Of a stretch of 64,000 bases of DNA, positions 13,200 through 16,300 are shown piece by piece. This stretch comes from Eledone cirrhosa (taxonomy: Eukaryota): contig OZ024746.1 of assembly GCA_964016885.1 (NCBI GenBank), positions 76,632,001-76,696,000 on the forward strand. The letters run 5' to 3'. Every line of letters starts with the position of its first letter. Within the stretch, counting starts at the first letter, position 1. The notes under the pieces are model-generated. The model was not told where the DNA came from, did not search any database, and worked only from the letters and a program-made list of their open reading frames with translations. Position numbers and translations under genes: made by a program.

Positions 13200-13312
13200 C
13201 GCCATTCCGGTATTAAGTCTCACGTGATCTACCTACGTCCTTTTTAGACTGGGTTCTTCCATTAGGTAGTATATATTTCGGTGCTGGTGATCAGAATCGA
13301 AAACAATCCAAA
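13200..13312 (+). promoter_or_regulatory. eEF2 core promoter and 5'UTR with TCT/5'TOP pyrimidine tract
   Basis: TCCTTTTT at 13238-13245 about 70 nt before the ATG; palindromic E-box TCACGTGA 13220-13227; ETS-like TTCCGG 13205-13210. This layout is typical of translation-machinery genes. The TSS is inferred. Confidence 0.6.
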
Positions 13313-16300
13313 ATGGTACGTATCATCAATTTGAATTTTGCCTTATATTATACTTAGCTAACACTCCTACAATAATTTAATTCATAATTTTTAGTTTTTA
13401 TTTCATTTTCAATAGTTTAATTAACATTTTCATTCACTCGTCTACCTTCTCAGTGGCGTCTTTATAAACTTAAAATTTCAGTCGGCTATCTTGCTATTCT
13501 ACTGAAAAGTTATTGTCAATGATATAAGAACATAAATCTAAAACTTAGATTTGTCTAATATTTTATTGTGGCCGAAATTATATGGAATTATTACTTTATT
13601 ACGCAACAGGCCTCAAATATGGCAATTGACGTCATTGTATGGCCATACTGCTCAGTGCTACTACGTGTTAAATTGTATTTCCGTATTTCTGTCTACGATT
13701 AATATGTTACTTTTTAAAATATCTTAATTTGATTATTCACTAATGTTTTGAAGATAAAAGCCATAAATAATTATACCATATGGTGCCATCTTTGTAAACT
13801 TATATAAATCATCTTTTTTTTCTTTTACTTTTTAAATTATGAATCTATTAGTCTGCCTAATGCGTAATAAACTGCAACAAAATCTTTAATATGTGGCTCG
13901 ACATTTTGATAAATAATGGTATAGACATACATTCATAATTCTGTGATAATGTCAATATAAACCAACTGATTTAATCAAAAATTTATTCTTTAATTGTTTC
14001 GCCAATATAGGATTCATACATACTGTTCGATGGTGATGTCATATTTTTGTATGACAGATACTTTTTTATATATCTATAGAGGAATCGGCAATATTTTGCC
14101 GTTTTTTTATTTTTTTTATTCCTTTCGATAATTACTTGTGAAATTAATTGGCCCACTATTCCATTGTTAGCACTAATCAATGGGTTGTCTCAAAACTTGA
14201 GTAATTAGTCTTTTCTGTATATCCCTGTAGGCCTTAATTGCCTGTCTTCTCACATTAATGTTGCGCAATCCTTGAGTGTATGGTGCAATACAACAGATCA
14301 TATATTCTCATGTTAAGATTTATTTAGACTTAGATATTTTTTTTTAATTATCTAGTTTATTCATTAAGGTATCCAAGATGCGAGTACAAATTGGGGAAAG
14401 GGCAATTTTACCCACACATTCAAGTGTGATCTTATTTTTAACTATAGCTTTTCTATTTTATAGAAAAGATATAGTTAAAATATATACTACCTAATGGAAG
14501 AACCCAATCTATATTATATTGATGGCAACCCTGTGTTTATTTACCTTATACTGCCACTTTGCCGATGACTGATTTATTGTTTCTTTATATGTTATATTTG
14601 GGGAGACTGTTATAATATTGCCAGAAATAATAAAACACTGTTTGGTTTGGATTGGTTTTCGCTATGGTTAATTTAGCTGGCAATAAATGTTTATCATTGA
14701 TTGACCAATAAACATCATAACGGGTAGCATTGACTCATTTGGCTGGAAAAGAGGGCCTGGAGGTTTGTCCGATATATGAAAATATTTATCATGCCAGACG
14801 CTGTTCTTCCGCAATTCCACAAATTTCCCAGATTACAAAATAAGAGATTTAACTCATGCCCACAAAATTAGATTTTTTTTTTAGCAGGCCCGCAATGAGG
14901 GTGCGTGGCCTAGTGGTTATGGTGTCGAAGTTAAGGTCGTAACTTCTATTCCTGCGCGTTTTTCTTGAGCAATGCATTTGATAGTTTTTTTCAAGTTATG
15001 ATTGATGCCCCTGTCAATAAAACACCCTGTGGAAATCGACCTCATGGGATACGATTGATATTGATATGTCTGATTATTTCCCTTGGTGGTAGTGCACTTA
15101 GCATTCCTTCCGATTGTTTCTATTACTAATACAATGTATTCTGTGGCTTTTCTGTTTGTAGGTGAACTTCACAATAGACCAGATCCGTGAGATCATGGAC
15201 AAAAAGAATAACATCAGAAATATGTCTGTGATAGCTCACGTAGATCATGGTAAATCCACTTTAACGGATTCTCTGGTCAGCAAAGCTGGTATCATAGCCT
15301 CTCAAAAGGCTGGGGAAATGCGTTTCACCGATACTCGCAAGGATGAACAAGAGAGATGTATTACAATTAAGTCAACGTAAGTTTTCAGTCAACATCATTT
15401 TTGATACCAATAAGGCTCTGGTTCTATGGAACAAAACTATCCATTTTAAAGGGTTCCTATTTAATATGTTAAGTTACTCAGTAATGAAATAATTGATCAT
15501 TGGTTGAAATAGAATGTACTGCATTACAAATACGGCCATGAATGTACTAAGCATTATAGTCTAATTTATCTTTTTTTCTTTGTTTATTTTAGGGCTATTT
15601 CCCTTTATTATGAATTGCCCAAGGATGATCTTGAGCATCTTCAACAAGAAGAGGTTACAAACACTTCTTTCTTAATCAATCTTATTGATTCACCTGGCCA
15701 TGTTGATTTTTCTTCTGAAGTCACTGCTGCTCTTCGGGTCACTGATGGTGCACTTGTGGTTGTAGATTGTGTTTCTGGTGAGTGTTTACTTAATTTGCAG
15801 TGTCCAGTCAGATAAATACATTTTTTTTTGTTGTCTTTTTATATGTAAATTCAAAGAATTGTAGGTAATTTAGTTGAATGTAATATCAAATGGATCAGTT
15901 AGTTGTCTTCTCAATAAATGAATGCTCTTTCCTTGTGTTTAAGATGTTTAACAAGTTTCCTTATATACATATAGGTGTCTGTGTCCAGACGGAGACGGTG
16001 CTGCGTCAAGCTATTGGAGAAAGGATCAAGCCAGTTTTGTTCATGAACAAAATGGATTTGGCTTTATTAACTCTAAAGCTGGCTAAAGAGGATTTGTACC
16101 AGACATTTCAACGTGTTGTTGAGAGTATCAATGTAATCATTGCTACATATGGTACTTCTGATGGTCCTATGGGAGATGTTCAGGTGAGTTAATGTTGCAA
16201 TCAACACATCTTAAACTCCTTTCATTTATTTCAGTGATGTAACACTTCTGGCTTTCATCTTTTAGGTTGATCCTCAAAAAGGAAATGTTGGCTTTGGTTC

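Follow-up and report, generated by a model that had tools for sequence, protein, structure and literature searches.

An inverted copy of the eEF2 leader in intron 1 of an octopod gene, probably left by two-template DNA repair

Intron 1 of an octopod eEF2 gene carries a 34-nt inverted copy of the gene's own leader, joined to a small hairpin. We consider it probable that the two arose together as a single, neutral, repair-mediated insertion of about 52 nt (14460-14511) made from two templates. All coordinates refer to the 64,000-nt stretch of DNA that was analysed (the window). The original prediction had named a neutral templated insertion as a fallback; it has become the best reading, on the evidence of the two-template anatomy, the 3-nt junction and the single-copy status.

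The inverted copy and its host gene

The host gene is octopod eEF2, with 15 exons, 835 amino acids and a CDS span of 13313-21403 (+ strand); its protein is 92% identical to three Octopus proteins, 91% to that of Argonauta and 86% to that of Sepia. The protein match, together with a GT..AG joint in an X4 contig (1,846 nt skipped, depth 2,711), bears out the original assignment of the gene to eEF2 with a first donor at 13316, and sets intron 1 at 13316-15161 (+). X4 was taken as an RNA run on the strength of a contig with a spliced joint. Exon 1 (13240-13315, +) comprises the leader and the ATG at 13313-13315; its 5' end is placed from the promoter, and an X4 contig covers 13279-13314 spliced to exon 2.

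Start sites of the TOP type follow a TCT consensus. In eEF2, a TCACGTGAT promoter motif (13220-13228, +) is followed by CCTTTTT, a TCT/TOP-type start motif (13239-13245, +), suggesting a transcription start site (TSS) at about 13240. The same layout, with TCACGTGAT upstream of a CCTTTTT pyrimidine tract, is present at eEF1A in the same genome (L111), and similar pyrimidine tracts lie upstream of RPS3A, RPS6, RPL3, RPL30 and RPS12. If the TSS is 13240, as the promoter architecture suggests, CTTTTT at 13240-13245 fits the definition of a 5'TOP as a cap-adjacent C followed by 4-15 pyrimidines, as worded in the available text of PMC5974435. By the same architecture, 13245-13278 would be transcribed. 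A single X4 RNA contig lies on exon 1, and its first base, 13279, directly follows the duplex target. This may reflect trimming during assembly, a variant at 13278 or a TSS further downstream; since contigs cannot place a TSS, the position neither supports nor disproves transcription of 13245-13278.

The match at the centre of the original prediction was found again: 14478-14511 (- strand) is identical at 33/34 positions to the reverse complement of 13245-13278 (+) in the inferred leader, and C13249 / A14507 is again the sole mismatch. The two arms are separated by 1,199 nt and the similarity ends sharply on both sides; from base composition, about 3e-10 such inverted pairs would be expected by chance in the window. 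That the 34-mer is not a repeat now holds genome-wide, with only the two arms found in the 3.0-Gb genome. DNA searches of the genome with 13200-13330 and with 14400-14560 returned 2 candidates each (the two arms, plus the hairpin's match to itself), and the many genomic copies that would mark a MITE or other dispersed repeat were sought genome-wide and not found. As positive controls, two genuine repeats gave 1,427 and 1,150 candidates in the same search, which passes over very common words. The copy is present in DNA contigs of X1 (12900-14637) and X2 (13790-14585), each with 0 other letters and one single-base gap, and these spanning contigs rule out a misassembly. X1 and X2 are one sample, possibly the assembly's own source. 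The RAD-seq runs X6 and X7 and the X4 contigs gave no coverage of either arm. An artefact, be it an assembly error, a match by chance or a pair of dispersed-repeat copies, would gain from this shared origin of the confirming DNA runs and from the skipping of very common words; set against the intact contigs, the minute chance expectation and 2 candidates where genuine repeats give more than 1,000, it is largely refuted and its probability is negligible. A literature search, in the parts of the texts available, found no published report of an antisense leader copy in eEF2 intron 1.

Other repeated sequence occurs in and around the gene. A high-copy repeat remnant, unrelated and downstream of the antisense copy, lies at 14590-14708 (no strand assigned; X1 summed contig depth up to 60,878) and has matches in many of the loci examined. 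A fragment at 14895-14955 in intron 1, which we take to be a tRNA-like SINE head, resembles dispersed sequence and matches L182, L120 and window position 47763. A second inverted pair in eEF2 (14987-15034 / 17734-17780, in introns 1 and 7; 83% over 48 nt) is likely two old repeat copies, because the intron-7 arm also matches L126, L138 and L140. Further along the window, 33934-39500 holds a large array with self-matches on both strands, at 77-91% and hundreds to thousands of bases long.

A relative, organism B, helps to tell original from copy. Its contig over 12900-13816 has 73 other letters and ends near 13826, upstream of the antisense copy. By the differences listed, it departs from the present species (A) at 1 of the 152 nt of 13176-13327 (A13273T), a block that includes the TCACGTGAT motif, vs 54/489 in the next, intronic stretch (p = 7e-6). 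Given that this leader-promoter block is conserved to organism B, the leader appears to be the constrained original and, as C13249 is shared, the mismatch to have arisen as G>A in the intron copy. The block's one change falls inside the duplex target, and A13273T is the only position at which organism B departs from the donor 34-mer. At A13273 the copy matches the present species, which is compatible with an insertion later than the A/B split; when compared against the antisense copy, the organism B contig has 2 differences, consistent with a single leader change. Five organism B records fall on 13790-14585, namely its own exon-1 contig and 4 unrelated matches of 34-39 nt. Scans of metagenomes gave 0 matches to a 23-nt leader pattern, and the best of 80 eEF2 loci there was 81% identical, none being close enough for a cephalopod.

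The joined hairpin and comparison with DNA repair

Absent from the original prediction is a hairpin at 14436-14480 (no strand assigned), with 21-bp arms, a 3-nt loop and 1 mismatch (-17.1 kcal/mol), which is itself single copy and overlaps the antisense copy by 3 nt. The overlap, AAA at 14478-14480 (+), is common to the hairpin arm and the antisense copy and forms a microhomology between two templates. The 52 nt of 14460-14511 therefore comprise two stretches of upstream sequence copied in inverted form, both on the same strand and joined at the 3-nt microhomology, one drawn from the immediate flank and the other from 1.2 kb away. Only 6 other comparable hairpins, one of them a known repeat, passed the filter in 1.2 Mb, and from these 6, the probability that such a hairpin falls by chance no more than 10 nt from an arm end is about 0.1-0.3%. 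A poly(A/T) tract of at least 5 nt was sought at the ends of 14460-14511 and was not found.

From this anatomy we infer a repair mechanism and an order of steps. In the germline, a break or a stalled fork near 14459 would have left a sense-strand 3' end, which may have folded back across the 3-nt loop and copied 21 nt of its own flank, creating the hairpin with its right arm (14460-14480) as the first templated segment. The new AAA end would then have annealed to TTT at 13276-13278, 1.2 kb upstream, so that 31 more nt could be copied towards the start site, before the copied end rejoined the right-hand DNA at 14512. Since the insertion, the copy and the hairpin would each have gained one mismatch. 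The choice of donor might have been favoured by the open or R-looped start of a highly transcribed gene, or the transcript might have served as template; this is a guess, hinted at by the end of the copy, which falls 5 nt short of the inferred TSS. A 34-bp duplex is predicted for the pre-mRNA, and any editing of it would be incidental and without a selected role.

Insertions of this kind have been described elsewhere, and our comparisons draw on the available portions of the papers concerned. Pace et al. 2009 (PMC2671141) list 824 human repair-mediated duplications with a donor within 5 kb, a class described there in vertebrates and related to the 'doublets' of Thomas et al. that they cite. 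The portions available report an apparent peak of donor distances near 1,200 bp, with the caution that it may be an artefact of method. Among the cases reported there, 20 are chimeras drawn from two donors, one of these having a 3-nt junction, and 5 have a donor in a 5'UTR; in ACSBG2, an exon was copied in reverse into one of the gene's own introns and shows no sign of coding constraint. By the features set out in that paper, the eEF2 insertion resembles these duplications in that its copy matches exactly one other genomic place, its donor is 1,199 nt off (the published limits being above 50 bp and below 5 kb), and the absence of a poly(A/T) tail of at least 5 nt speaks against retrotransposition. 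It is likewise a two-donor chimera with a 3-nt junction, AAA microhomology joining the two templated segments at 14478-14480, and its donor lies in the (inferred) 5'UTR with a reversed copy within the same gene, as in ACSBG2. It differs from the same published set in coming from an invertebrate, in a main segment of 34 nt, below the 50-bp cut-off (the composite reaches 52 nt), in lying outside any transposon, so that no ancestral sequence displays the empty site, and in having the immediate flank as one donor, as in snap-back synthesis.

Two further papers, also available in part, describe related events. Complex multi-template germline insertions made up 33/103 and 26/99 events in two people (PMC8421209), and snap-back synthesis creates new inverted repeats (PMC5728401). 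The eEF2 insertion shares with such MMBIR-like insertions (PMC8421209) and with SD-MMEJ/polymerase-theta junctions (PMC5728401) the sequential template switches at short microhomology and the inverted copy of a flank that yields a new hairpin; the search in those studies, however, was mostly confined to about 100 bp or closer, whereas the second eEF2 template is 1.2 kb off. On its sequence anatomy, we would best file it as a further case of an already described class, the repair-mediated two-template local duplication.

Some observations count against a neutral repair scar. No empty site was observed, organism B's contig ending before the position of the copy. A reach of 1.2 kb is long by the description of snap-back repair in the available text of PMC5728401, and the background rate given below comes from one verified event, in direct orientation. 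Moreover, the insertion shows 2 mismatches, where a neutral insertion dating from the A/B split would have about 4.2 (P = 0.21); the low count would suit either a young or a constrained element, the two not being separable by this measure.

Local copies elsewhere in the genome

To put the insertion in context, we took a census of 120 stretches of 10 kb (1.2 Mb), 80 of them genome-wide, 20 flanking the window and 20 around chosen genes. A stricter pass gave 11 non-window pairs, one of which was isolated with arms more than 300 nt apart. This pair (L169:7571-7613 / 8804-8846; G000:C5:70007571, 70008804) consists of a 43-nt donor and an exact copy of it in direct orientation, 1,190 nt away and unrelated to the eEF2 copy; its 2 candidates genome-wide make it a single-copy pair and likely a second repair-mediated duplication. 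A broader pass gave 30 non-window rows, 9 of them without a third copy and 1 of these 9 inside a larger block; the genome-wide check was made on L169 alone, and for seven further two-copy candidates the copy number is that within the census stretches.

One event per 1.2 Mb corresponds to about 2,500 per genome (63-13,900). At this L169-based rate, about 1.4 inverted copies of a first-exon leader would be expected per genome (0.03-7.5, with gene numbers assumed), and one such case is therefore expected. For a TOP leader specifically, the expectation is about 0.005 per genome, under uniform donors and assumed gene numbers and for a class picked post hoc; the landing on eEF2 may reflect luck, donor bias or selection.

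An initial estimate of one single-copy inverted copy per ~50 kb (29 non-window pairs, 80 loci) was abandoned. Both inverted background pairs that were checked proved to belong to transposon-like repeat families, indicating that such copies are much rarer than this estimate. L126:6428-6735 and L164:2385-2665 represent two high-copy inverted-repeat (MITE-like) families, each with more than 1,000 candidates. Two inverted two-copy pairs, L139:1709-1797 / 2300-2386 (502 nt apart, with an overlapping hairpin as in the eEF2 case) and L189:445-749 / 1930-2234 (1,180 nt apart), may be rare transposon ends. In or near ribosomal-protein genes, local duplications of 130-540 nt were seen, namely in the RPL7A region (L121, nested), an RPS6 intron (L107) and the RPLP0 region (L116). 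L113 (G000:C4:107680942), likely a processed pseudogene, is an eEF1A-like copy interrupted by in-frame stops, and the end of its leader resembles that at L111. At the scale of the assembly, contigs C1-C4 of G000 measure 379-443 Mb vs 24-136 Mb for the others examined, and may be fused chromosomes or scaffolding joins.

Duplex, editing and guide RNA

The original prediction went on from the match to a 34-bp duplex in the pre-mRNA and to several consequences. The duplex itself is supported by folding: in a pre-mRNA fold that assumes a TSS at 13240, it is predicted to form at -49.3 kcal/mol, with a pairing probability of about 1 over 13250-13273 that drops to 0.89 at 13275 and 0.37 at 13276, a fraying end. 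The predicted structure is what any such copy would give. The consequences fared less well. The A-C mismatch had been proposed as an ADAR target; its A (14507) is in the intron and its C (13249) in the exon, so that editing would leave the mRNA unchanged, and about 18% of single random changes would produce an A-C mismatch. A cryptic AG/GTAGT donor at 13266 does exist as a motif (TAG/GTAGTA, 13263-13271, +) but is weak: on a small matrix built from 13 eEF2 donors it scores -3.2 and ranks 24th of 98 GT sites, the true donor ranking 1st, and in the X4 contigs no joint starts from 13266. The sole RNA joint seen in the X4 contigs is that of the true donor, and masking of a cryptic donor by the duplex is not supported. 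Nor do antisense leader copies recur in other TOP genes: for 0/6 TOP-type leaders (RPS3A, RPS6, RPL3, RPL30, RPS12 and eEF1A, from 20 gene-targeted regions) was there an antisense match longer than 10 nt in the next 2.5 kb. RPSA, RPLP0 and RPL7A, whose leaders were not placed, fell outside this count, and the rest were non-TOP-type or extra copies.

A copy born of repair may nevertheless have been kept since, if its duplex makes the eEF2 leader available for ADAR editing while intron 1 is still in place, and so tunes output. We regard this as unlikely, although the near-certain predicted pairing, with 1 mismatch only in 34, would provide a substrate in animals that, by the portions of the literature available, edit RNA heavily. 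The exonic arm holds 8 adenosines, 3 of them in the UAG context. This context is favoured by ADAR. With A13273 edited, the ATA at 13271 would become an upstream start, in frame and adding 14 residues; with A13275 edited, a 5-codon upstream ORF would be created (frames checked in both cases). However, both sites are located where the duplex frays, initiation at AUI is an assumption, and the copy is transcribed 1.2 kb past the true donor, which is the best GT of the region. In addition, T13273 in organism B removes both ATA triplets, so the upstream start or ORF route would be lineage-specific. A fuller version, in which a repair accident became a home-made editing guide in one octopod lineage and editing of A13273/A13275 tunes eEF2, for example with temperature, strikes us as decidedly unlikely.

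Intronic editing-complementary sequences are familiar from the Q/R and R/G sites of GRIA2, and the eEF2 case is similar in that an intron segment is complementary to an exon of the same pre-mRNA, with a long-range duplex predicted. It differs in that the target is leader rather than coding sequence and the mismatched A is in the intron. That the copy is an old, conserved editing-complementary or splice-masking element of coleoid eEF2, with both arms under selection, appears very improbable to us. In its favour, the leader is strongly conserved to organism B, which may carry the copy as well, but the conservation spans the whole 152-nt promoter-leader block, and the sole change among the differences listed falls inside the target. 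The weakness of the cryptic donor and the lack of a parallel in the 6 other TOP-type genes also weigh against it; the fused hairpin with its 3-nt overlap is explicable without function, and no second organism B contig was found on 13245-13278, where a filter could mask one.

The hairpin with its antisense tail might alternatively encode a small guide RNA (snoRNA-, microRNA- or siRNA-like) that acts in trans on eEF2 mRNA, a reading to which we attach scant probability. A stable hairpin does lie directly 5' of the 31-nt antisense tail, but the antisense part is outside the hairpin, and folds of 14400-14560 contain no second one. By the size criteria for microRNA precursors, a 21-bp stem with a 3-nt loop is short. 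An Rfam scan of 11000-26000 gave no family match at gathering score; the best local match was mir-3119, at 26 bits vs a gathering score of 80 (E 0.11).

If the insertion is a neutral repair scar, it would add a neat invertebrate case, with both templates and the junction still readable, to a class of duplication described in vertebrates. It would also illustrate how exon-intron duplexes, from which site-specific editing can develop, may arise in one step in heavily editing animals. Were the leader shown to be edited, or eEF2 to be affected, the copy would offer the rare case of an editing guide whose origin can be dated, and would add a new point of control to a TOP-type mRNA; as an editing guide, it would be an editing-complementary sequence caught at birth, its donor taken from an open gene start.
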